Shown here piece by piece: positions 3,715-48,134 of a DNA stretch of 64,000 bases. The notes under the pieces were generated by a model. That model made no database searches. It was not told the DNA's origin and saw nothing but the letters and a program-made list of their open reading frames with translations. The stretch's first letter is position 1, and the number at the start of each line of letters is the position of its first letter. This stretch comes from a virus, in IMG/VR virus record IMGVR_UViG_3300009510_000002. The stretch is one strand, 5' to 3'. The position numbers and the translations under genes were made by a program.

Positions 3715-4557
3715 ATGCTAAGATCATACAGCAGAGCAATTGACTTCAAGGTCGTCTGGGAAGCTACTAAAGCTCTTAGAAGTAATGGCTTCTATGTAGT
3801 CATAGGGAAAATGTTCGACTGCGATTCAGAAATTGCAGCATTAGCCATCTACTCAACACAGACCTATGTATTCGCAGGTTTTGTAAGGTTCGACCAAGGA
3901 TGCCAGATGTACGAAGATGAAAAACGCAATGTACCTAATGTATTTTTCGTCTCTAATAAATATGTTCAGCAAGTCAGGGAGGTTCTTTCCTATGGCGAAA
4001 TACAAGAGAATTTCGATTTTAGCCAATTCCCGCAAAGCTACTACCCAGACATTTTAGACACAACACTGCCTGAAGTATACAGATTCGACTTGGCACAGAT
4101 TTTTAACAGAATTTTGTCTCCTGAACAGGTCAGGAAAGAGTATGAAGAGTATTTGGAAGAAGAGCGGTTGAAGGAGGAAACCAAGAGACAGATAAAAGGA
4201 AACTCAGTGGAGTATATAGAGGATCTGGGAGTGTTAAAAAGTAAGCATTCTTCTAGGGATACTAAAGACATTAAAATCCCTAAAGGTGCGATCGCGGTTG
4301 AGTATAACACAGCAAATAAACGGGTATGTAAATTCTATTTTCCTGGAGACAAGATACCTGAATCCATTGGTATGTTTCGGGTAGAGGGGTTATACCAAGT
4401 CACGACGTTTATTCAGTGCGAAGATGAGGAAGATCCTGAAAGGATATTTTTATACCCACAAGATGCTGTCAGCTATTGTGATAGCTTGAGTGATGAAAGT
4501 GGTAAGAAATGTTTCGTCAGAAATATGTTGAATAACAACTATATTTACGAAACGTGA
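3715..4557 (+). CDS. hypothetical protein (C-terminal domain paralogous to 2160..2498)
   Basis: 280-aa ORF with SD AAGGAGAG upstream. C-terminal ~100 aa aligns by eye with 2160..2498. Confidence 0.65.
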   Translation: MLRSYSRAIDFKVVWEATKALRSNGFYVVIGKMFDCDSEIAALAIYSTQTYVFAGFVRFDQGCQMYEDEKRNVPNVFFVSNKYVQQVREVLSYGEIQENFDFSQFPQSYYPDILDTTLPEVYRFDLAQIFNRILSPEQVRKEYEEYLEEERLKEETKRQIKGNSVEYIEDLGVLKSKHSSRDTKDIKIPKGAIAVEYNTANKRVCKFYFPGDKIPESIGMFRVEGLYQVTTFIQCEDEEDPERIFLYPQDAVSYCDSLSDESGKKCFVRNMLNNNYIYET

Positions 4558-4635
4558 CTAGTGCCAGAAACCCCCAGATTCATCTGTGGGTTTGAAAAAT
4601 AAACAACAAAATCCCCCACTTATTTGCATGAGTGG

Positions 4636-4680
4636 GGAACTCAGTGGAGTATGTAGAAGATCTGGGTTAAAAAGTGCTTC
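4636..4680 (+). repeat. Displaced partial copy of an internal segment (4198-4250) of gene 3715..4557
   Basis: GGAACTCAGTGGAGTATGTAGAAGATCTGGG---TTAAAAAGTGCTTC versus GGAAACTCAGTGGAGTATATAGAGGATCTGGGAGTGTTAAAAAGTAAGCATTC. Confidence 0.7.
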
Positions 4681-4920
4681 CCAGTCTTGAATGAACTATC
4701 CCCCGATAGAGTTGGATTCCTGACGATATCGGATATAATATGGTTAAAGCACCTAATAAAAGGTGAGGATTGGAACACGTTAATGATCCTGGCTGCGGTC
4801 ATCGCCAAGAAGTTTTTACCTCTTGGCGATGACTATATTGAGGTTCTTGTACAGTCCCATAAACCAAAATCCCCCACTTATGCAAATAAGTGGGGGATTA
4901 GTCGTATTAGAGCATATGTT

Positions 4921-5202
4921 CTAATTATAGTAGCAGTTATCAAGAATTCCGTCGTATTTAACGATAATCAAGCGAATGCTTTCAAGCAAAAACTCAACAC
5001 TACATTGTTGTACAGAGTACTTGTTCGATAGCTCCTCAATTATCTCTGACAAATCGTAATCGCTTGGGTTGCCGGGATCTGCATCCATCCAAAATTGATG
5101 GATATCCTCACCAATCTGGCTGTTGTCTAAATAAACTTCCCCTTCCGCGATCGCCATCAACAGACGACGTTCTTTGATTGAAACTATTTGAGGATGTGGC
5201 AT
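4921..5202 (-). CDS. hypothetical acidic protein
   Basis: 93-aa ORF followed on its strand by hairpin ATCCCCCACTTAT/ATAAGTGGGGGAT plus a T-run (4866-4897). Competes with the less protein-like + strand ORF 4687..5031. Confidence 0.4.
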   Translation of the reverse strand: MPHPQIVSIKERRLLMAIAEGEVYLDNSQIGEDIHQFWMDADPGNPSDYDLSEIIEELSNKYSVQQCSVEFLLESIRLIIVKYDGILDNCYYN

Positions 5203-5387
5203 ATAATTACTGTAAATCTAGGTACACCATGTTCGCACCCACCCATTTTTTTAGTGGGTGATTTTTTATGTCTTAAATCTAACTCAATATGTATATATTC
5301 GTCAAGTATAAATACTTTAGCAAACTATTTCACTTTCCTAAAAAAATACCAACTAACATAGAAGTGTAAACTTTTCCCTCTTAAGAT

Positions 5388-5669
5388 ATGCTGCGAAAGT
5401 TACACCTCATAAGGCTAAAAAAGCCACACCAAATTAACTATACGGTGATGTTACTAATAACACTTCTAGCTATTTTAGGTACTACCAAGTGGCATATTGT
5501 CTATTCTTCAACCTCAAATAAACCAAATGGTTGGGAGGTCGAGACTTACCCCGATAAGCTGTGGCCATATACGACAACGTTATTATTTAGCCTTGGTATA
5601 CCCTTTGATAGCATCAACAAGGAAAAAATAGTTAAGCTCATCTCTGCTATCTCAGCATTATATAAATAG
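5388..5669 (+). CDS. hypothetical protein, possible membrane protein
   Basis: 93-aa ORF with a hydrophobic stretch (VMLLITLLAILG). Weak support. Confidence 0.3.
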   Translation: MLRKLHLIRLKKPHQINYTVMLLITLLAILGTTKWHIVYSSTSNKPNGWEVETYPDKLWPYTTTLLFSLGIPFDSINKEKIVKLISAISALYK

Positions 5670-5681
5670 TGGAATATATGT

Positions 5682-6305
5682 GTGATTCAATCAATCTTAA
5701 AAAAGCTGAAAAAAGCTTTACAAAAAACCAAAACTATCGGACAGAAACACCCCAAGGTAATTAAAACGAAATATGGAAAAAAATGCGCGGTCTTCCAAAT
5801 TCATGACCCCCAATTCATCGCCACATTCAGAGTCACACCGTACTCTGTCGAGGTGGGAGATTTTGAGTATATATTCAAAATTCGTATTTTGCCCGGTTTC
5901 GAGGAAGAAATTCTTGGGGAATTCGATGGGGAAGTTATCTCTGTACCATCGGATCTGTCTAAAGATGGCCTGTGTGTATATGAGTTTTCGATACTCGCTT
6001 TATTTCCTAATGGCGCTAGTCGGGTTCTGTATTGTATTTACATCGATTCTTATAATCCCAACCGTACCAGGGTTAGTAGAATCCTCGGCGCCACAGCTAG
6101 GAGGATCGCATATAAATCACTTCAGGTAGTCCACGACCCTAAAAACGGTTTAAGCCACACATGGCGATCGCTGATGGCAGAGAGAAACTGGCTTCTAGAA
6201 CTCAGTGAGGCGATCGCCATGTTTGAAGAATCAGATCCCGATCTCAAAAACCAACACATCAGTACATCGATAGTGCTGATGTATCAAGCGGATTTGTATT
6301 ACTAA
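5682..6305 (+). CDS. hypothetical protein
   Basis: 207-aa ORF with GTG start. The overlapping ORF 5773..6129 looks less protein-like. Confidence 0.5.
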   Translation: MIQSILKKLKKALQKTKTIGQKHPKVIKTKYGKKCAVFQIHDPQFIATFRVTPYSVEVGDFEYIFKIRILPGFEEEILGEFDGEVISVPSDLSKDGLCVYEFSILALFPNGASRVLYCIYIDSYNPNRTRVSRILGATARRIAYKSLQVVHDPKNGLSHTWRSLMAERNWLLELSEAIAMFEESDPDLKNQHISTSIVLMYQADLYY

Positions 6306-39409: not shown

Positions 39410-39916
39410 TTGTACTACGACAGACACGTCATCCTCGACATGGACAAAAAACAAGCTGCTGAATTTTTAGGTGTTAGTCAGCGCATGATTGAACGCTATA
39501 CTCAGTCTGGCGAGATTGGGTGTACATATATTAAGCAAGGACGGGTAAATAAGGCTATATATGACGAAGAGGAATTAAGGAGATTTAAAGAACGGCGAGA
39601 AAAACCAATTCGTCCATCCATTACCACTGATACACCACGACAATCTCCGACATCCCACGACATTATACCGTACCCTGACACCTCCGACAGTATTGAAGAT
39701 ATCGTTGAAATAACCAGGATTTTCACCATAGGATTACAGCAAATTAGAACCAGTGAAAAGCTGGTATTAACACTGAAAGAATGTCAGTTACTAACTGGGC
39801 TTTCTCGTAAATATTTGTTGGATGCGATCGCGTCTAAGAAGCTAAAAGCCAAGTATATTGGCAGGGGGTGGAAAATTACCAGAATAGATTTAAAGGCTTT
39901 TACTAGATCCTTTTAG
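39410..39916 (+). CDS. DNA-binding protein with two excisionase/MerR-type HTH segments
   Basis: KQAAEFLGVSQRMIERYTQSGEI and LTLKECQLLTGLSRKYLLDAIASKKLKAKYIGRGWKITRIDLKAF. Confidence 0.55.
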   Translation: MYYDRHVILDMDKKQAAEFLGVSQRMIERYTQSGEIGCTYIKQGRVNKAIYDEEELRRFKERREKPIRPSITTDTPRQSPTSHDIIPYPDTSDSIEDIVEITRIFTIGLQQIRTSEKLVLTLKECQLLTGLSRKYLLDAIASKKLKAKYIGRGWKITRIDLKAFTRSF

Positions 39917-40045
39917 ATCCGTCTTCTAAGAATAGGGGGTCAAACCCCCTATCTATTTTTCTTCCTGCTAAAGATAGATTTTAAGAAACAAGGCTATAAT
40001 TTTTTTTAATTATTGTATTTTGCAAGCAATTTATTTGGTTTAAAA

Positions 40046-40531
40046 ATGTTAACAATTCAGTTAAGTACAGGAAGCCTACGTACATCGCTAAGTAGGTTTT
40101 TGGATACACCCATATTGGTCGAAAAAGTTGGCGACAAATACCAAGGGCTTGTTTTTTTAGATGGGGAGAATTTATTTAAAACCCCACTTTACAATTCCCC
40201 CAAATATACTTTACAAAAACTTCAAAGGAAAGCAGTTGAAAATTATTGCTACTCATCAAGATACCCTACCGTTATGATGAGTATTCGTGGCCAAAAGCAA
40301 AAAGTGGTTGCATTGAACGAATTGGCAGAGAATTTTTTAGGGGACAAATTAAATGGGGAACCTTCGATTTTTAGTAAATGGGGACGGGAATATATGCGGA
40401 AACACTTACTTTCTTTAAAAATTGCAGACATTGATCATTTAAATACAAAAAATGCCTTGATAGAAATTAAAAGGGTATCAAAGGCACTTTTTGTTTATTC
40501 ATTTGTAAATTGGGAGGATTCTATTTACTAA
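40046..40531 (+). CDS. hypothetical protein
   Basis: First ATG in the ORF-track frame. The track start at 40013 is TTG. Confidence 0.45.
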   Translation: MLTIQLSTGSLRTSLSRFLDTPILVEKVGDKYQGLVFLDGENLFKTPLYNSPKYTLQKLQRKAVENYCYSSRYPTVMMSIRGQKQKVVALNELAENFLGDKLNGEPSIFSKWGREYMRKHLLSLKIADIDHLNTKNALIEIKRVSKALFVYSFVNWEDSIY

Positions 40532-41327
40532 TCTCTTCATACTCTAATATCAAGTCTTCAATTAACTTAATAATTTGTTCGTAGCAATTACCTAATTTAG
40601 CGTCCCAAGTACTTTGCAGGGTGGTTAACTTTCTTCTATCCAAATATTCTACCATGAACCAAGCTATGGTATAGAGTGTATTCTCTGATATCTCTATACC
40701 ATCTACATTATTTCTAATATGGTGCAAAGTCTCAAGCGGGATATTGGTCATTCCCGCGCAATCAACCAAAGAAAAATTTCTCTTGGTCAGTACGTATATA
40801 AAAGCTTTTTGTAAGCGATTTAAAAGATCTCCGGAAATTGTACTCTGTCTTTTGTCAGATTGCCCTTTTAATCTTTCGGCTAATAATTGGCTTGATATTG
40901 CGACAATGTTAGCCAGTTCAGCCGTAGAGGCATTCTGAAGCCGAGACTCTAGGTCTTCAGCCTCAGAGACAGTACAGTTTAGTTTGTTTATCAAAAAGCT
41001 GGCCAGTGACATCCCGTAAAATTTAGCCAGCATTGCCAAGTCTGTGACTTTTGGCACATCAGTTTGAGCCGGGTCAGACCAACGCCGGATTTTGTTTCTT
41101 CCTATTTCCGGAATTTTACTTTCTATTTCTGCGGACAACTTATAGGGTGTTAGATCTTTTTCTCTGGCTTCCTGCCTGAAAAAGGTTACGAGCTTGGCTT
41201 TAATATCTTCCTCGGGTGGAAAGTAATTCGCCGATTTTACGTTTCCACTTACATCACGATCATCACGATAATTATTATCTTCCTTACCATTCACTGAAGT
41301 CTCACCGCTTAGTAACACCATAACCAC
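40521..41327 (-). CDS. double XRE-type HTH regulator encoded directly downstream of the Cas12-like gene
   Basis: KIRRWSDPAQTDVPKVTDLAMLAKFYGMSLASFL and SLVDCAGMTNIPLETLHHIRNN resemble two XRE HTH units. Confidence 0.55.
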   Translation of the reverse strand: MVMVLLSGETSVNGKEDNNYRDDRDVSGNVKSANYFPPEEDIKAKLVTFFRQEAREKDLTPYKLSAEIESKIPEIGRNKIRRWSDPAQTDVPKVTDLAMLAKFYGMSLASFLINKLNCTVSEAEDLESRLQNASTAELANIVAISSQLLAERLKGQSDKRQSTISGDLLNRLQKAFIYVLTKRNFSLVDCAGMTNIPLETLHHIRNNVDGIEISENTLYTIAWFMVEYLDRRKLTTLQSTWDAKLGNCYEQIIKLIEDLILEYEEISK

Positions 41328-41455
41328 ATACTACCGCTTTGCAACTACACATATCTTATAATATTATCAAATAAATATTTTTGCAAAACAAGTATATTTT
41401 TGCAAATCGCATGAAATACTTGTGGTGGCAGTATTTCAGCGATTTCGTTTTTAGC

Positions 41456-43336
41456 TTAAGTTTTCACCACTATTGGTTTTATTCTCTTTGTTTTAGCCGT
41501 TTTTGGTTTAACAGCCTTTCTGGTTTTTTTGATAGTGCGTTTTTTGCTGTCTACACCCTCTAGCGATTCAGGTGGCACAGGCTTGTCAGTGCGGGTAATA
41601 TGAGAAAACCATTCATAGTGCTTAATATCTTTTTCATCACAAAAAGCACCGTAATAATCATTTTGTGCAGCATTTGTATCAGCGTTTTGTTGAATTTGAT
41701 AAAGCTTACAACGTTCGTTTAAGCAGTAAAACTCAAGAGCTTTTGGGTGTCTACCTAGTTCCCCACAACAGTGACATATCTGGCTGGAATAAGGAGATGG
41801 GGACAAAGTGAAGCTATCTGGTCCCCTAAATCGCCGACATTTCTCCTCCACCAGCGATCGGTATCGTCCCCATCTAGCATCTAAAATTTCGCGATTTAAA
41901 TCAGATTGGTGTTCCGCACCATTTGGTTCATATCCTTTACCATCTGCACTTGGTATCGGATCCGGACGCTTCACCATCTCGTCTGTCGGCATTTCCTCAA
42001 TAGTTATTTTCCCAAAGCGGCGTACCAGAATAGTTGAGGATTTATGCAAAAATGCATTGGCGGGTCGCCGGATCTTGGTTTCATTGATTTTACCTTTTCG
42101 GTGGAGCGTTTTTTTGTAATTATTACTATCTCCCCGCAAATGATCCACGGACAACCCTTGCTCTTGGCGCTCCTTGATTAATTTTTTCCTATCGCTGCGT
42201 TGTCTGGCTAGTTTACGCTCGATTCTTGCTAATTTTCGAGCTTGTTTGGCAGCAAACCGAGGATTTTTGACATGGCTACCAGGTTCGTCACTGGACATGA
42301 GGTTGATTAGCCCCGTATGGACAGCTATTCCCCGCTTCCGAGGTTTAATTTTGGCTTTTTTACGTACCTGTATTGATAATTCTGCCTTTAAATCACTGAT
42401 TTGCTGCTTAAGCAACTCTTTTTCCACAAACTCCGGAGTCTTTTTCAACTGAGCTTCCAGTTTACGAATTTTAACTTCCAAAGGATGGGCACTGACAATA
42501 CACACATACCACCCGGTGGGTTCTTCCTTAATAGTTACCGCCCTAATGGCTCCGGGGGTAGATCGCACCTCTTCGGGAATTCGCTCATGATTCTTATTTA
42601 CAAATCTTAGTGATAAAGGATGCTGCTTACCTTCACCATCTACCCATTTACCAGGGAGCCTAAGTCTATCGCCATCAAACCAGATCTGCTCTGGACTAAT
42701 GCAATGGAATGATGGCAACATCTCATTCTTTTTAAAATTAGGCATACAAGCTTTTTCTATCTTGGGGTTCAAATAAGCTTCCCAAGCAGCAACTAAGCGA
42801 TTAAACACAGTCCCCTTCATCCAAGACGACGGTACAGTGAGTTCCCCCAGTAGTTTTAGTTTCGGCTGACCCTTTTCTACACGATCCTTATTTATTAGCC
42901 GCCGGCGGGAGTCTTCTTCTTCACGCATCAAATCACATCTTGTCTTAGTCAGGTACCCTGTAAGGGTCATAAAAAGGTCTGGATTTTTGGGTCTAGCCTT
43001 ATTTTCAGGGTAATGGGACAACAGAGTTGGTTCCTCTGGTAGCATTTTTGGGGGTATGGGGGTGTAGACTCCATTTTTAATAATTGCAATTTCACAAGTT
43101 GGCGATGCCCATGCCCTCTTTTTATTTAAGCGGAGCCTACAGCGGAGAATCCCGTTCATGTTGATTTTTTCTTTTGCTGCGTTTTTTAACATGAACTCGT
43201 AATACCTAAACTGCTGATACTCAATCAGCAACTCTAGCGCCTTGTTCCAAATCCACCTTAAATTAGCTGCATTTCTGCCAGTAAAGAAATTTTTCTCCCA
43301 ATCATTCATGTAGATTTTGCACTCAGTCGTTATCAT
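41456..43336 (-). CDS. TnpB/Cas12-like RNA-guided effector candidate (type V-like), RuvC-I Asp replaced by His
   Basis: TnpB-like WED/REC strings. RuvC-I position reads RGIAVHTGL (H340), RuvC-II ITIEEM (E447). Zn ribbon C521xxC524...C538x4C543. RuvC-III NADTNAAQN (D553). Adjacent CRISPR array. Confidence 0.8.
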   Translation of the reverse strand: MITTECKIYMNDWEKNFFTGRNAANLRWIWNKALELLIEYQQFRYYEFMLKNAAKEKINMNGILRCRLRLNKKRAWASPTCEIAIIKNGVYTPIPPKMLPEEPTLLSHYPENKARPKNPDLFMTLTGYLTKTRCDLMREEEDSRRRLINKDRVEKGQPKLKLLGELTVPSSWMKGTVFNRLVAAWEAYLNPKIEKACMPNFKKNEMLPSFHCISPEQIWFDGDRLRLPGKWVDGEGKQHPLSLRFVNKNHERIPEEVRSTPGAIRAVTIKEEPTGWYVCIVSAHPLEVKIRKLEAQLKKTPEFVEKELLKQQISDLKAELSIQVRKKAKIKPRKRGIAVHTGLINLMSSDEPGSHVKNPRFAAKQARKLARIERKLARQRSDRKKLIKERQEQGLSVDHLRGDSNNYKKTLHRKGKINETKIRRPANAFLHKSSTILVRRFGKITIEEMPTDEMVKRPDPIPSADGKGYEPNGAEHQSDLNREILDARWGRYRSLVEEKCRRFRGPDSFTLSPSPYSSQICHCCGELGRHPKALEFYCLNERCKLYQIQQNADTNAAQNDYYGAFCDEKDIKHYEWFSHITRTDKPVPPESLEGVDSKKRTIKKTRKAVKPKTAKTKRIKPIVVKT

Positions 43337-43489
43337 CCCCGTTACCCCTAAACCGTGACATGAACTAATTTAATCCAAAAAAGAACATCTTGCCTTTTTT
43401 GAAATTATGGATCATAATGTGTTTACTTTGAATTTTTCAAAGTCTACGCGGCTTGGTCTGCGGAAGTTAAAGCTTGTTCTGAACTTAAG

Positions 43490-43804
43490 TTCAGTATTTG
43501 GGGGACAAAATACCAGTGGGAGTACCCCCAAGCGACCAGTAGGTGAAAGCCCTGGATTGAGACAAGTCCCTCAATGAGCGGGCCGGAATCCTGCTCCGAT
43601 CCCGGGCAACCGGAATACCTACACTCTTAGAGCGATCTGCTACCTGAACCTTGACAATTGCGCGCGTGCCACCCTTGCGATCTTTGCTCTGCAACGATTT
43701 TGGGTATCTGCTGTATCTCACGCGGGAATAAACACAGCTTGTTTACCTGAACTTCGGAAACCCTTTCTGGAATTCTTTCTACGACTGGGTTCTGGAGGGG
43801 AGGG
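43490..43804. ncRNA. ORF-free GC-rich structured region between effector gene and array: tracrRNA/leader candidate
   Basis: Stems such as GGGGG(43500-04)/CCCCC(43525-29). Anti-repeat CTTGCGATCT at 43674-43683 is complementary to the repeat 3' end. The ORFs predicted here look spurious. Confidence 0.5.
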
Positions 43805-44654
43805 GTGGCGATAGGCTTTAGATGTCTGGGTAGTCGCAAGCTTGTAATGCCCAAACTTTTTGGTGTGCATCCCTAGCGGTGGCGATAGGCTTTAGATGTC
43901 TGGGTAGTCGCAAGTTTACAATAGGCAGATTCTTGATCAGCTAACGCTTAACGTGGCGATAGGCTTTAGATGTCTGGGTAGTCGCAAGCTCAACCAGCTA
44001 ATTCCTAGCTATACTGGACAATCAGTGGCGATAGAACTTAGATGTCTGGGTAGTCGCAAGTGCCTATGATCCTCTGTTCCTTAGAGTGTTGGTGTGCTCT
44101 GTGGCGATAAGCCCTAGATATCTGGGTAGTTGCAAGAATACGAGTTATTGCCGCATCTTTATCTAGGTCAACTGTAGCGATAGGCTCTAGATGTCTGGGT
44201 AGTCGCAAGAATCACGGTTGGCACGAGAGCGTTTTTCGCTCAATTTCGTGGCGATAGGCCCTAGATGTCTGGGTAGTCGCAAGCTGATCCATTCTTTCGT
44301 CACTTTCCACCCCCAATCCAGGTGGCGATAGGCCCTAGATGTCTGGGTAGTCGCAAGGTTGACATAAGTTACTGAATTTAAGTCTCGATTTAATTAGTGG
44401 CGATAGGCTCTAGATGTCTGGATAGTCGCAAGTGGAGTTATTGGATTTGGATAAACACCACGAAAAAGTGGTGATAGGCTTTAGATGTCTGGGTAGTCGC
44501 AAGTAAAATTTGAGTGTTTACTTAAATCAGGGGGTTAAAAGTGGCGATCGCACCTAGTAGATGTTAGACAGTCGCAAGACACAGAATACAGGTTTAAACT
44601 TGTTAATGACAGCATTAAAGTCGCGATCGCACTTAAATATTTAGGCAGTTGCAA
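43805..44654 (+). CRISPR. CRISPR array: 10 conserved plus 2 degenerate 36-nt repeats, 35-41 nt spacers
   Basis: Consensus GTGGCGATAGGCTTTAGATGTCTGGGTAGTCGCAAG. Repeat starts at 43805, 43879, 43953, 44025, 44101, 44174, 44248, 44322, 44397, 44468, with degenerate copies at 44541 and 44620. Strand is inferred from the degeneration gradient. Confidence 0.9.
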
Positions 44655-44690
44655 TTCTGACTAATTATTAAAAAAGGTTAAGATCCGGGA

Positions 44691-45331
44691 GTGGCGATCG
44701 CAAGTGATAGTTCTGAATGATCGCAAGTTATCTTCCTGGTTGCCACAATTTTGGGGATGCCTGGCGAAAATCGCAAGTATCCAGGTCAGGACAAGACAGG
44801 GAATAGGGATTGCAAGGGTAAGGAATTTTAGGTCTGAGCGATCGCAGGTCCGAGTATGTCGCAAGTTGAATCGTGAGCCATCGACTGTTAAAGGTCTAGC
44901 GCAGGTTTAGACAATTCCCCAAAAAGTTGTTTTCTCCTGAAAACCTTACCCCACAAAGGTTTTGGTTGCACAAGTATTTGTACTTTGATTACGAAACACA
45001 TAAATTGGGCGTAGGTCGCAAGTCAGCAGGAATTTTATCACTTAGGTTCTCACAGGCAGTTTTAGGATTGGTGGCGATCGCTAAGTATTACAGTTTTCTA
45101 GTCAAGTAGGAAAGAAAGATCGCAAGCTGTGAACAATTACTTTAAATAGGTTTAGATCGCCAAGGATGAATAAAAAGATGAGATCGCAAGTCATGGGATT
45201 GGCAAGTCGCAAGACAAATTTCTCTCCCTATTCAGATCGCAAGCTGATCCAAAATGTCAGATAGACTATTTGCTTAATGTAGTGCGATCGCAAGAACGAA
45301 GGGAACATTCCGAGTTTTGATAGATCGCAAG
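44691..45331 (+). repeat. trail of 11 exact (plus ~7 near) copies of TCGCAAG, the 3' end of the CRISPR repeat, at irregular 17-69 nt spacing
   Basis: Exact copies end at 44704, 44727, 44777, 44865, 45022, 45126, 45190, 45213, 45243, 45294, 45331, all on the + strand. 44691-44704 GTGGCGATCGCAAG is a collapsed repeat. Confidence 0.8.
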
Positions 45332-45340
45332 CTGAAAAAC

Positions 45341-45994
45341 TTATTTACTGCTTCGTAAAGAAGATAGCCCAAAAGCTTTGAGAATTTGATTTTCTACCTG
45401 AACCTCAACAAATGAGGGAATAGAGCCTTTGGGTGCGAGACTTGGTACGTGATTATTGATCACAGTTCCAGCTTTCCAACATTTATCAAGAACTGACCAA
45501 ACTTCTACAGTATCGCCCAATGAGGGGTATTCTGCTAAAAATTTTTCTTGTTCAACTACTGCCGATTTTTTAACTTCTTGTGGTGCTATCAGAGTAACTT
45601 CACCTCCGTAGCATCCAGGTGAAAGCTTTTCCAAGAACTCTGCTACATCGTGACGGTGGCAGGGTTCATTTGGTTTTTCGTAGCATAAAAGCGTTACGGG
45701 TTTTCCTGCTGACAAGGTAGAATTGAGCCAATTAGTAATTTGCTCAGAATTCTTCCTCAGAATATTCAAAAAAGCTGGTTGGTAACTAACGGTATACAGA
45801 TTTTTTAAATAAGTCGAATAGTTTTCAACCTCAGCAGTTTTTGCTTTTTTCTCTATGAGTTTCCACTTTTTTAGTAGCTCCTCAGACGGGGCAAGCATAT
45901 TTAAGTGTGTCCCAGTGAAATTTTTTGGGGGACGACGGGAGATAGAAATACCTTCCCCGATAATTGGTCCGGAGTAGTAACTGGTGTGAATCAT
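45341..45994 (-). CDS. hypothetical protein
   Basis: 217-aa ORF, last gene of the replication-module string. The N-terminus faintly resembles DUF488-type proteins (not verified). Confidence 0.55.
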   Translation of the reverse strand: MIHTSYYSGPIIGEGISISRRPPKNFTGTHLNMLAPSEELLKKWKLIEKKAKTAEVENYSTYLKNLYTVSYQPAFLNILRKNSEQITNWLNSTLSAGKPVTLLCYEKPNEPCHRHDVAEFLEKLSPGCYGGEVTLIAPQEVKKSAVVEQEKFLAEYPSLGDTVEVWSVLDKCWKAGTVINNHVPSLAPKGSIPSFVEVQVENQILKAFGLSSLRSSK

Positions 45995-46809
45995 GCCAAC
46001 AGCCCCAGTAGTGGATAGTTTTCTTTGCAGTTTGGACTAAGCCATAAACACTCAACACCAGTACGAGAGCCATTAGTTTTAGCGTCCCACTTAATACACC
46101 GCCAGTCAGACAGCGATCGCTCATAAACTTCAGACCCGTACCCAGAAAGAATAACCATTGCATCTACTGATTGAAGTGTGGAGAGTAATTCTTGATGCTG
46201 GTGAATACTCATCTCATGGTCATAAATATTTTTGCTGACCCGCGAATCTGCGATGTAGGGAGGGTCACAGTAAAGCAGAAGGTCTGGATTTTCCCCTACA
46301 CGGCGAATTAGCTTTAGGGCATCCCCACATTCAATCTGAACCAGCTTTAGGCGATCGCGCACCTGCTCCAAATGGTTGGTTCTATTCCAAGTCTCAACGA
46401 CGTTTCGGCTATTGGATTGATGAATGAGTGACCATCCCCCGTTTTTAGTAACCGATGTTCCGCCGCCGTGGGTCTGCCAGCTGCGAATATAGAAATTAAC
46501 GGCACGTTGCAAGGGTTCGGTAGTTGGTTCAAAAGCTTTCTTCCAGACGGTTCGGGAGTAGGGAGTATTCTCTATCTGCCAGAGAAACTCCTGATAGCGA
46601 TCGCGGAAAACCTGGAAGAAATTAACCACGTCGTCGCTGAGGTCGTTGATAATTTCAACTGGGACTGGAGGTTTCTGGAGGAGTACTGATGCTCCGCCAC
46701 AGAAGGGTTCACAGTACGCAGAATGGGGAGGGAAGTGGGAGATAATCTTGGCAGCATCTCGGTACTTCCCCCCAAAGTATCTGAGCAATGGGGGTAAATC
46801 GGCGATCAT
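45991..46809 (-). CDS. dam: Dam-family DNA adenine methyltransferase
   Basis: LRYFGGKYRDAAKIISHFPPHSAYCEPFCGGASV and the catalytic motif LYCDPPY. Confidence 0.85.
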   Translation of the reverse strand: MIADLPPLLRYFGGKYRDAAKIISHFPPHSAYCEPFCGGASVLLQKPPVPVEIINDLSDDVVNFFQVFRDRYQEFLWQIENTPYSRTVWKKAFEPTTEPLQRAVNFYIRSWQTHGGGTSVTKNGGWSLIHQSNSRNVVETWNRTNHLEQVRDRLKLVQIECGDALKLIRRVGENPDLLLYCDPPYIADSRVSKNIYDHEMSIHQHQELLSTLQSVDAMVILSGYGSEVYERSLSDWRCIKWDAKTNGSRTGVECLWLSPNCKENYPLLGLLA

Positions 46810-48134
46810 TGATGCCTTGGTAGAATATCTCTAAAGGTGGTAAATTGTCTGTCAAACAGCATTTTTACTGTTCCGGTAGGACCATTACGGTGTTTGGCCA
46901 CGTTTATCTCAACTATTCCCTGTTCCTCTGACTGAGGGTTGTAGTAGTCGTCACGGTATAATATCATGACCATGTCTGCGTGTTGCTCGATAGCACCAGA
47001 CCCCTTTAAGTCGGATAAAAGTGGGCGCTTATCATTTCTGGATTCACACCCCCGATTGATTTGACAAAGCAGGATAACCGGTACTTTTAGCTCACCACTT
47101 AGCTGCCGGAAAGCCAAAGTAATCGCATCTAACTCTGATACTTCATTTGAAACTTGATTAGATTTACTCATTAACTGTAGATAGTCAACAACTACAGCCC
47201 CCAAAACACCATTGTTTCGTTTCTTGGCCCATCGGCATTGGGCAAGTATAGAGGACGGGGTAATATTCCGGCTATCGTTTACGTAAATCGATAATCCAGA
47301 AATTTTATTAGTAGCCTCAACTACCTTATCCCACTGAAAATCTTTTATATCCCTCATCTTGAATATGTTTGTGGGTAGTTGAGATTTTGAGCAAATCATT
47401 CTTTCTACTAATTGCTGACTGCTCATTTCTAGGCTGAATACAACTACTGGGGCAACTCTGGAAATATTCTCGGCTATCTCTAGCCCCAGGGCAGTTTTAC
47501 CCATTGATGGCCGTCCAGCAATAATTGTCAAAGTTGATTCACTAAGCCCCCCAGTTAGTCCATCTAGTGCAAGATACCCAGTTTTGACACTGGGGGATAT
47601 ATCACCACTTTGGACTCCTTCTAATTTTGTAAATCCCGCGATCGCTATTTCACTAATTGGTTTTAACTCAGAGGTAATGCTTTCTTGGAAACCATCAATT
47701 ATCCTTGAACCGTAAGCCAGTATTTCTTCATTGGTGTTTGCAGGGGTTTCTGCAAAATCCAAGAGTTCCCTAAATTGGGTAATTATTTGACGACGTATCC
47801 ATTTTTGGATCAACAAATCGGACAGCTGGTCGATGTTAACATCTGAAACTGTCCGATCTAGTAGGTCTGCTAATTTCGACCTACCCCCAACGTTGTGTAA
47901 TTCTTGGATTTCCTCTAGCTTATTTGCTACAAACATGGCATCCGTCGGTTTCCCTTCTAGACGCAGAGTAAGTATAGCTCTATAGATTTTTTGGTGAGTT
48001 ACCAAGTAAAAAGCTTCTTCCCTCAAGGTTTCAATCACCCTTTCTATGGCACCTGGGGATAACATCAAACCACCCAGAACCGCCTCTTCTGCCTCAATGC
48101 TGTTTGGTGGGACTTTCAAAAATTGAGATTCCAT
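46806..48134 (-). CDS. dnaB: replicative DNA helicase DnaB
   Basis: N-terminal PPNSIEAEEAVLGG, Walker A AGRPSMGKTA, DYLQLM, typical length of 442 aa. Confidence 0.9.
   Translation of the reverse strand: MESQFLKVPPNSIEAEEAVLGGLMLSPGAIERVIETLREEAFYLVTHQKIYRAILTLRLEGKPTDAMFVANKLEEIQELHNVGGRSKLADLLDRTVSDVNIDQLSDLLIQKWIRRQIITQFRELLDFAETPANTNEEILAYGSRIIDGFQESITSELKPISEIAIAGFTKLEGVQSGDISPSVKTGYLALDGLTGGLSESTLTIIAGRPSMGKTALGLEIAENISRVAPVVVFSLEMSSQQLVERMICSKSQLPTNIFKMRDIKDFQWDKVVEATNKISGLSIYVNDSRNITPSSILAQCRWAKKRNNGVLGAVVVDYLQLMSKSNQVSNEVSELDAITLAFRQLSGELKVPVILLCQINRGCESRNDKRPLLSDLKGSGAIEQHADMVMILYRDDYYNPQSEEQGIVEINVAKHRNGPTGTVKMLFDRQFTTFRDILPRHQ

Follow-up and report, generated by a model that had tools for sequence, protein, structure and literature searches.

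The IMG/VR virus record IMGVR_UViG_3300009510_000002 carries, within the 64,000-nucleotide (nt) stretch analysed here (the window), a gene for a Cas12-like effector on the minus strand and a CRISPR array on the plus strand; the region studied, 43337-43804, lies between the effector start and repeat 1. A reading made from the sequence alone (the sequence-only reading) had proposed this region as a candidate trans-activating CRISPR RNA (tracrRNA) and leader, and homology and covariation with related loci support a tracrRNA-like scaffold and a leader candidate there. The features of the locus, from the effector gene to the far end of the array, are the following.

41456..43336 (-): effector gene, 626 amino acids (aa), TnpB-derived Cas12-like, related to V-U2 (C2c8) and Cas12p (Pfam, NCBIfam, PDB match and alignment)
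43337..43444: putative AT-rich divergent intergenic control region (GC 0.36-0.37), with the effector 5' untranslated region and back-to-back promoter-like sites
43445..43465 (+): block A, hairpin H1, with stem 43447-43451 paired with 43458-43462 and loop 43452-43457
43479..43494 (+): hairpin CUGAAC-UUAA-GUUCAG, which holds the palindrome GAACTTAAGTTC; lineage-specific (minimum-free-energy folds; not alignable to relatives)
43498..43531 (+): hairpin UUGGGGG...CCCCCAA, with the GGGGG/CCCCC stem (minimum-free-energy folds)
43535..43556 (+): block B-like hairpin composed of ACC, AGUAGG, UGAAAGC and CCUGGA
43557..43643 (+): GC-rich lineage-specific insert with extra hairpins, e.g. AUUGAG 43556-61 with CUCAAU 43570-75 (RNAduplex suboptimals)
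43644..43659 (+): conserved block CUGAACCUUGACAAUU, 16 of 16 nt identical to the related loci L001m and L274
43674..43683 (+): CUUGCGAUCU, the anti-repeat of the sequence-only reading, 8 bp with the canonical repeat end
43684..43804 (+): leader-proximal scaffold part, its motifs resembling those of relatives at the same offsets from repeat 1
43805..44515 (+): CRISPR array of 10 well-kept 36-nt repeats (GTGGCGATAGGCTTTAGATGTCTGGGTAGTCGCAAG), period 71-76 (repeat finder)
44516..45331 (+): decayed distal array, with degenerate repeats and, beyond them, some 12 irregularly spaced short motifs of the (A)GATCGCAAG type

The array was oriented by comparison with relatives. The loci used were L082, L261 and L263 (those of the nearest protein relatives, P0003-P0005), that of cyanophage CL131 (L163), and L264, L266, L267, L268, L270, L271, L001m and L274, where L001m is a second locus on the minus strand of the viral contig L001 and L274 is its near-twin. 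In relatives with an array, the array reads in the effector direction, its repeat 1 follows the effector gene or overlaps its stop codon, and the 290-510 nt ahead of repeat 1 code for a C-terminal effector tail of low conservation that starts YRAWAWE. The relatives' repeats, read in this direction, share the form G(G)UG ... G(C/A)AAG with the plus strand of the window, whose repeat has the same base as theirs at 17-25 of 36 positions; homology extends to the repeats of CL131, L263, L082, L264 and L267. Because the homology holds in the effector direction of the relatives, the sense strand of the window array is plus, inverted relative to the effector. The layout therefore differs from that of V-U2 systems, with the effector on the minus strand and scaffold and array on the plus strand upstream of the effector start. 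Cas12 arrays lie nearly always downstream of the effector and in the same direction (PMC10691335), as they do in the relatives, and the suggestion that the region occupies a typical Cas12 tracrRNA position was not borne out, the module being upstream and divergent. Three repeat-pattern scans of viral contigs found no related array; L180, which gave two repeat-pattern matches, was rejected as a relative since it is a coding tandem repeat.

The strongest evidence comes from hairpin H1, which in the relatives is formed by the YRAWAW codons (CCGCGC-UUGG-GCGUGG). A position weight matrix of block A from eight relatives has its top score at 43445 (+) among 127,950 window positions. Covariance analysis across homologous loci, proposed as a check by the sequence-only reading, yielded both a model match and compensatory pairs: model R1, built on block A of the relatives alone and searched unfiltered, places its best match within the 64 kb at 43439-43480 (+), with 19.4 bits and E 6.3e-4, and across 12 loci 91.7% of the H1 cells are paired, four of the six pairs show double changes and none of 500 shuffles was as good. 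Three of these double changes come from the window (CGCGG with CUGCG). Translated on the plus strand, block A of the window reads YAAWSAEVK and then stops, versus YRAWAWEVK in the relatives. Since the compensatory changes arose despite a dead reading frame, conservation acts on the RNA and not on the protein, and H1 has been kept at the RNA level through compensatory changes.

A second hairpin, block B, has a 6-bp stem and a UGAAYAU loop in the family; in an alignment of nine loci registered by hand, 96.3% of its cells are paired, 17 cells carry double changes and none of 500 shuffles was as good. The window keeps four of the six family stem pairs (43540-43 with 43551-54) and the UGAA start of the loop. 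Just upstream, the loop of the hairpin at 43498-43531 contains ACCAGUGG (43512-19), which resembles the ACCA(N)UGG of the relatives and is aligned by MAFFT with the GGAACCAGUAGCGG-type segment. The conserved block CUGAACCUUGACAAUU lies at -161 to -146 from repeat 1 in the window and at -156 to -141 in L001m and L274, where it complements the repeat 3' end (CUUG-A-CAAUU versus AAUUG-CAAG); the 16-mer CTGAACCTTGACAATT is present in 22 viral contigs and, besides L285, the source contig of L001, only L274 also has H1. Closer to the array, UUCGGAAAC (43753-61) and CUACGACUGGGUUCUGG (43779-95) resemble the relatives' CUCGGAAAC and CAGCUUAC-CUCUGG. Over its whole length, the window scaffold aligns with L001m at z = 4.9 over dinucleotide shuffles, and in this comparison the true segment outscores all 2,814 other 360-nt window segments, while five of the 2,814 are as good or better against L268 and 16 against L264. 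Judged by these alignments, 43445-43804 (+) matches the predicted scaffold that the relatives encode in the 3' tail of the effector open reading frame (ORF) before repeat 1. The sequence-only reading had named absence of the region from homologous loci as evidence that would speak against it; the relatives carry the scaffold.

The same reading had described the whole spacer as GC-rich and structured. This applies to 43475-43700 (GC 0.53-0.56 versus 0.36-0.45 in the flanks) and not to 43337-43444, which is AT-rich and promoter-like; homology to the relatives' scaffold starts only at about 43439-43445. A consensus scan places promoter-like sites at 43440 to 43411 on the minus strand (TTGAAA-18-TATGAT) and at 43390-43418 on the plus strand (TTGCCT-17-CATAAT), and 43337-43444 might tentatively be regarded as a shared divergent promoter region. 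The motifs that had been quoted are all in place (GAACTTAAGTTC at 43481-92, GGGGG at 43500-04, CCCCC at 43525-29, the CCGG/CCCGGG-rich segment at 43578-43605 and CTTGCGATCT at 43674-83); the stems and the palindrome exist, but they are lineage-specific and do not carry the evidence. Compared with 100 dinucleotide shuffles, folding is better than random on the plus strand (z = -2.8, none of 100 as good) but not on the minus strand (z = -1.05), and the repeat folds into a G-U-rich hairpin of -10.9 kcal/mol on the plus strand versus -1.8 kcal/mol on the minus strand. The scaffold is assigned to the plus strand because it alone accommodates the G-U pairs of H1 and of the repeat hairpin, and because of its fold z-score. 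An Rfam scan of 40000-47000 at E <= 1 gave no match, placing the region in no Rfam family, and comparison of the region with the relatives by blastx and blastn found nothing significant except the 16-mer, with no similarity to the retrieved effector relatives by blastx.

The H1 loop also connects the scaffold with the array. Its CUUG (43452-55) is complementary to the last four nucleotides (CAAG) of each window repeat, and across ten loci, in which the loop reads (C/G)UU(G/U) and the cognate repeat ends read (C/A)AA(G/C), 97.5% of the cells pair. Compensatory changes occur in L266 (GUUG with CAAC) and L082 (CUUU with AAAG), and the loop of the window is still CUUGG although the coding constraint is gone. 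In the relatives, a long anti-repeat to repeat nt ~11-32 directly follows block B, and repeats are more complementary to the scaffold of their own locus than to those of other loci (p = 0.0025).

The effector has a Pfam match to Cas12f1-like_TNB, and its best NCBIfam model is V_cas_c2c8 (NF038192) with 170.5 bits, below the cutoff of 350, which is passed by CL131 (451 bits), P0012, P0017, P0023 and P0067 and failed by P0002-P0005. Its best PDB match is Cas12p (9jfs, E 3e-32, residues 164-572). RuvC-II Glu447 and RuvC-III Asp553 are retained, while the RuvC-I aspartate is replaced by His340 (codon 42319-42317; GIAVHTG versus GIDPGV in all close relatives and Cas12p), so the canonical D-E-D triad is incomplete. 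Such an effector may bind its targets without cutting them, or may have an altered active site; a V-U group with non-canonical RuvC-I, linked to a helix-turn-helix (HTH) protein, has been described (PMC10691335). The protein is nearly a singleton: it shares 30-39% identity with its closest relatives, a search of 5.8 billion protein clusters matched it only to itself, with the profile version swamped by ordinary TnpBs, and a metagenome scan retrieved only distant TnpBs. A scaffold at the effector's own 3' end was considered and rejected, as model R1 finds no H1-like match there. In the relatives, the first repeat begins GGTGAAA where it overlaps the stop codons, and the end of the window effector ORF, GGTGAAAACTTAAGC..., is similar to this; TAGTTGCAAAG at ~41342-41352 (minus strand, past the effector stop) is similar to a repeat end, and the repeat-like bits at 41340-41470 (-) may be remnants of an earlier guide module reading in the effector direction. 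An HTH_17/MerR-like regulator gene is located at 39410-39916 (+), ~1.5 kb past the effector 3' end, and in L264, L268 and L269 an HTH_3/HTH_19 gene lies directly upstream of the effector and overlaps it.

Taken together, we consider that 43445-43804 (+) is probably an omegaRNA-derived, tracrRNA-like scaffold of a V-U2-related type V system, running into its array. The sequence comparisons support a V-U2-type scaffold that appears to have been detached from the effector ORF and inverted, and that now lies beside an effector with a non-canonical RuvC-I motif. We hypothesize that a plus-strand transcript would start near 43425 and run through the scaffold into the array. The CUUG of the H1 loop would pair with the terminal CAAG of each repeat, beside the spacer, to form a pseudoknot as in Cas12p, Cas12k and TnpB, and CUUGCGAUCU, possibly together with 43597-43645, would add repeat:anti-repeat contacts. 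For the first repeat-spacer unit the scaffold would act in cis, and for those after it in trans as a tracrRNA. The scaffold RNA would be bound by the 626-aa effector, which, with histidine in place of the RuvC-I aspartate, may bind rather than cut its targets.

Several observations weigh against this interpretation. Block B has lost two of its six pairs in the window, and the only two unpaired cells of the block B alignment are those of the window. The long anti-repeat found after block B in every relative is not recognisable; the window candidates are CGAUCCCGGGCA (43597-43608), which faces repeat nt 19-32, and GCGA[UCUG]CUACCU (43632-43645), which faces repeat nt 24-34, and neither is above chance. 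Pseudoknot covariation stems from a small sample with only two variant loci, L268 breaks one pair, and the H1 loop of the relatives also encodes a conserved Trp, which introduces a coding confound. Whole-length similarity is not significant against seven of the ten relatives, and an nhmmer profile of the whole noisy scaffold alignment (eight relatives) gave no match in the region. Transcription from about 43425 is only inferred, and the promoter-like sites are weak, their number not exceeding that in shuffles. Finally, the window scaffold is more similar to the scaffolds of canonical C2c8 loci (L001m, L268 and L264) than to those at the loci of the closest protein relatives of the effector; RNA module and effector may have separate origins and have been joined secondarily, and they may not work together.

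Many of these points would also suit a relic, in which a second effector copy was lost and only its decaying 3' tail is left ahead of an orphan array, serving as leader and promoter at most and yielding no functional tracrRNA. The stopped reading frame of block A with YAAWSAEVK for YRAWAWEVK, the two missing block B pairs and the absent canonical anti-repeat fit such a history, as do the decayed far end of the array, the mutated RuvC-I motif and the possibly separate origins of module and effector. Nevertheless, three H1 pairs have changed on both sides and still pair, the CUUGG loop is intact after the loss of coding, the ten leader-proximal repeats are nearly identical and the effector has no other scaffold nearby. 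We thus regard the relic as unlikely, and the tracrRNA-like scaffold as the better description of the segment.

It is less likely still that the system uses CRISPR RNA (crRNA) only, in the manner of Cas12a, with the repeat's own hairpin as the effector handle and the 470 nt merely as leader and promoter. The self-hairpin of the window repeat is the strongest of the family (-10.9 versus -2.1 to -7.5 kcal/mol), the trans anti-repeat is weak in the window, and the authors of the CL131 study reported no tracrRNA and proposed a V-A-like handle (PMC6293099). On the other hand, V-U2-type loci, CL131 included, share a conserved and covarying scaffold, the anti-repeats co-evolve with their cognate repeats, and the TnpB-derived relatives with solved structures, Cas12p included, all use scaffold RNAs. 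One may speculate that the 5' half of the window repeat has assumed part of the role of the anti-repeat.

The sequence-only reading had placed its anti-repeat at 43674-83. The pairing it described is real, with CTTGCGATCT being the exact reverse complement of AGATCGCAAG and pairing with the repeat end TAGTCGCAAG through seven Watson-Crick pairs and one G-U, while the partner of the repeat 3' end that is conserved in the family is the CUUG of the H1 loop. With older or short-motif forms ending (A)GAUCGCAAG, CUUGCGAUCU forms 10 to 12 perfect pairs. A short tracrRNA starting from ~43660, with this element as its main duplex and the GC-rich part upstream unrelated, could be imagined, since the motif RTCGCAAG has 24 copies in the window, 21 of them on the plus strand in the array, and its sole minus-strand copy in 64 kb is 43674-81. 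Just 0.2% of shuffles contain a complement to the short-motif form (AAAGATCGCAAG, 45115-26) that is perfect over 12 nt (p ~0.002), and six of ten loci have a CTTGC motif at a comparable distance, 106-131 nt before repeat 1. Against the canonical repeat 3' end, however, a complement as good arises in 12% of dinucleotide shuffles (p = 0.12) and is unremarkable; the CTTGC motif fails to separate cognate from non-cognate repeats (p = 0.17), L001m, which has the closest related scaffold, lacks such a complement at the aligned position, and the conserved homology and covariation begin 230 nt further upstream. Co-folding of the repeat with the region by RNAduplex, also proposed as a check, gave an energy no better than that of shuffles on either strand. 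A short tracrRNA of this kind is therefore very improbable, and 43674-83 is plausible as a secondary, not the defining, anti-repeat of the longer scaffold. Protein coding on the minus strand is hardly credible: the two predicted ORFs of 76 and 75 aa (43491..43721 and 43627..43854), already suspected to be artefacts, have GTG/TTG starts, no Pfam match at E <= 1 and no blastx similarity to the retrieved effector relatives, run antisense to the conserved structured RNA and in one case extend into repeat 1.

The repeats of the array decay with polarity. According to the repeat finder the ten leader-proximal ones are nearly identical, and the best-kept repeats adjoin the scaffold with degenerate ones at the far end, which fits a CRISPR leader upstream of repeat 1. 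Beyond the regular array, ~12 (A)GATCGCAAG-type motifs are spread over 44690-45331 (+) at distances of 17-157 nt; the exact 9-mer GATCGCAAG has seven copies there versus 0.26 expected in the whole window. The older degenerate repeats also start with GTGGCGATCGC. Since the canonical repeats of L264 end in GGGCGATCGCAAG, this type of end may be ancestral, and the short-motif form is possibly the ancestral repeat end. Neither the ten spacers nor the sequences after the short motifs have a convincing self-target in the rest of the window, the best being a 14-nt match. A near-direct repeat of 27 nt (22 of 27 identical) flanks the array region at 43634-43660 and 45388-45414; the first copy includes CUGAACCUUGACAAUU and the second lies in the 3' end of a DUF488 gene. 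A duplicated cassette was considered as its origin, but the similarity is borderline (E = 0.078).

Neighbouring genes, within 25000-64000, encode a phage lysozyme with a peptidoglycan-binding domain, thymidylate kinase, class II (B12-dependent) ribonucleotide reductase (RNR), DnaB, Dam methylase, PNK, a DUF2213 protein and a phage cement protein. The cyanobacterial HIP1 octamer (GCGATCGC) has 101 copies in 64 kb, ~1 per 630 bp. Gene content and HIP1 count indicate a probable cyanophage or prophage genome. HIP1 is absent from 39832-44543 (4.7 kb comprising effector, scaffold and well-kept repeats) and present in the decayed array tail, which suggests that 39832-44543 may be recently acquired DNA. 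A DNA search of the locus against GenBank phages gave no match. The RNR gene lies ~8 kb from the effector start, beyond the array; in Cr-LKS4 and RM-2018a, RNR is directly downstream of the effector homologue.

Some of the related loci have arrangements of their own. L001 (IMGVR_UViG_3300042378_000447) holds two convergent type V loci, at 4001-6273 on the plus strand and 8667-6300 on the minus strand. The first has a Cas12p-like effector and 11 repeats ending GTTGAAAC; the second, on the opposite strand, combines a V-U2-type scaffold with an array of 28 repeats. L274 closely resembles this second locus, and where it differs pairing is preserved (hairpin UUCC/GGAA to UUCU/AGAA, anti-repeat duplex U-A to U-G). 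Cylindrospermopsis phage Cr-LKS4 (L164, 1330-1900) encodes an effector homologue with no detectable array; upstream of the effector are two tandem ~360-nt units, each opening with a near-consensus TTGACA-N17-TATAAT promoter and then a GC-rich hairpin (CCGCAGTTCGGGCGG). L165 is likewise without an array and has a gap equivalent to that of L164. At L261/L262 (5984-6060), P0004 has no array; one repeat-like sequence (GGTG...GTTGTAAG) closes its ORF, and unique sequence comes after it. Judged by sequence, this single-guide layout appears omegaRNA-like, in a clade that also contains array-bearing loci.

Our search of the literature found no paper describing a tracrRNA, scaffold or guide RNA for V-U2 (C2c8). 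The comparison offers an RNA model for this family, with a 5' hairpin that would pair through its loop with the repeat end as a pseudoknot, then another covarying hairpin, and an anti-repeat directly after the latter. Most members would hide the scaffold RNA in the C-terminal coding tail of the effector, while the window would present it as a free-standing, opposite unit after the loss of coding. The window thereby separates RNA-level from protein-level selection and may illustrate one route from omegaRNA to a tracrRNA with an array; the model also says which RNA to supply when small phage Cas12-like proteins are reconstituted. A bolder scenario, which we put forward as doubtful, is a phage-borne V-U2-derived system after three changes, namely a freed and inverted scaffold, the exchange of the RuvC-I aspartate for histidine, and decay of the array to mini-units. 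If this were true, the scaffold would be a divergent transcription unit of its own, a natural tracrRNA being born from omegaRNA, and the RuvC-I histidine would point either to an effector that binds or represses under RNA guidance or to a changed catalytic site. The ~10-nt units ending GAUCGCAAG, which exactly fit a dedicated scaffold anti-repeat (43674-83), could then act as repeat-less mini-guides, like the truncated units of Cas12k.

Cas12k (V-K, from cyanobacterial CRISPR-associated transposons) shares with the window a cyanobacterial setting, repeats of 36-37 nt ending G(A/C)AAG and an inactivated RuvC site; it depends on a pseudoknot-forming tracrRNA, and truncated repeat-spacer units are known (10.1101/2021.02.06.429022). 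In V-K, however, the tracrRNA lies between cas12k and the array, all in one direction, whereas the window module is divergent and no Tn7 genes were found near the window effector. With the omegaRNA of TnpB (IS200/IS605), the V-U2-type relatives have in common a scaffold RNA that extends over the 3' end of the nuclease ORF and finishes in a guide-adjacent pseudoknot segment; the array appears to arise by duplication of the scaffold 3' end (PMC10691335). The window differs from the TnpB arrangement by a multi-spacer array, a scaffold separate from the ORF and the lack of a transposon context.

The V-U2 (C2c8) system of cyanophage vB_AphaS-CL131 (PMC6293099) is similar to the window in its repeats (21 of 36 positions identical, with the same GUxx...GCAAG ends), in H1, block B and the motif spacing before repeat 1, and in its cyanobacterial or cyanophage host range; the window has both the V-U2-type repeat and the V-U2-type scaffold RNA (H1 and block B). 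In V-U2 loci, the scaffold overlaps or follows the 3' coding end of the effector and the array has the same direction, while in the window the module is detached, upstream and divergent. Cas12p (the 'Cas12 hacker', type V-P; PDB 9jfs), the best solved-structure match, is like the window effector a phage-encoded, miniature TnpB-like Cas12. It needs a 185-nt tracrRNA, in which nt 7-10 form a 4-bp pseudoknot with crRNA positions -1 to -4, and such pseudoknots are considered general for Cas12 tracrRNAs (bioRxiv 10.1101/2025.01.20.633832). Pairing of a 5'-proximal tracrRNA segment with the last four repeat nucleotides is what we propose for the H1 loop of the window, with CAAG:CUUG instead of AAAC:GUUU; the window repeat ends in CAAG and thus lacks the AAAC motif. 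Similarity of the proteins is only partial, being limited to residues 164-572 of the window effector, which lacks the RuvC-I aspartate, while 11 of the 12 known Cas12p members are >70% identical (bioRxiv 10.1101/2025.01.20.633832). The Cas12p-like viral loci L001, L002, L004, L006 and L010 have their arrays downstream of the effector and in the same direction, unlike the window. By analogy with these systems, the RNA of the window would work like a scaffold RNA of the Cas12p, Cas12k and TnpB type.

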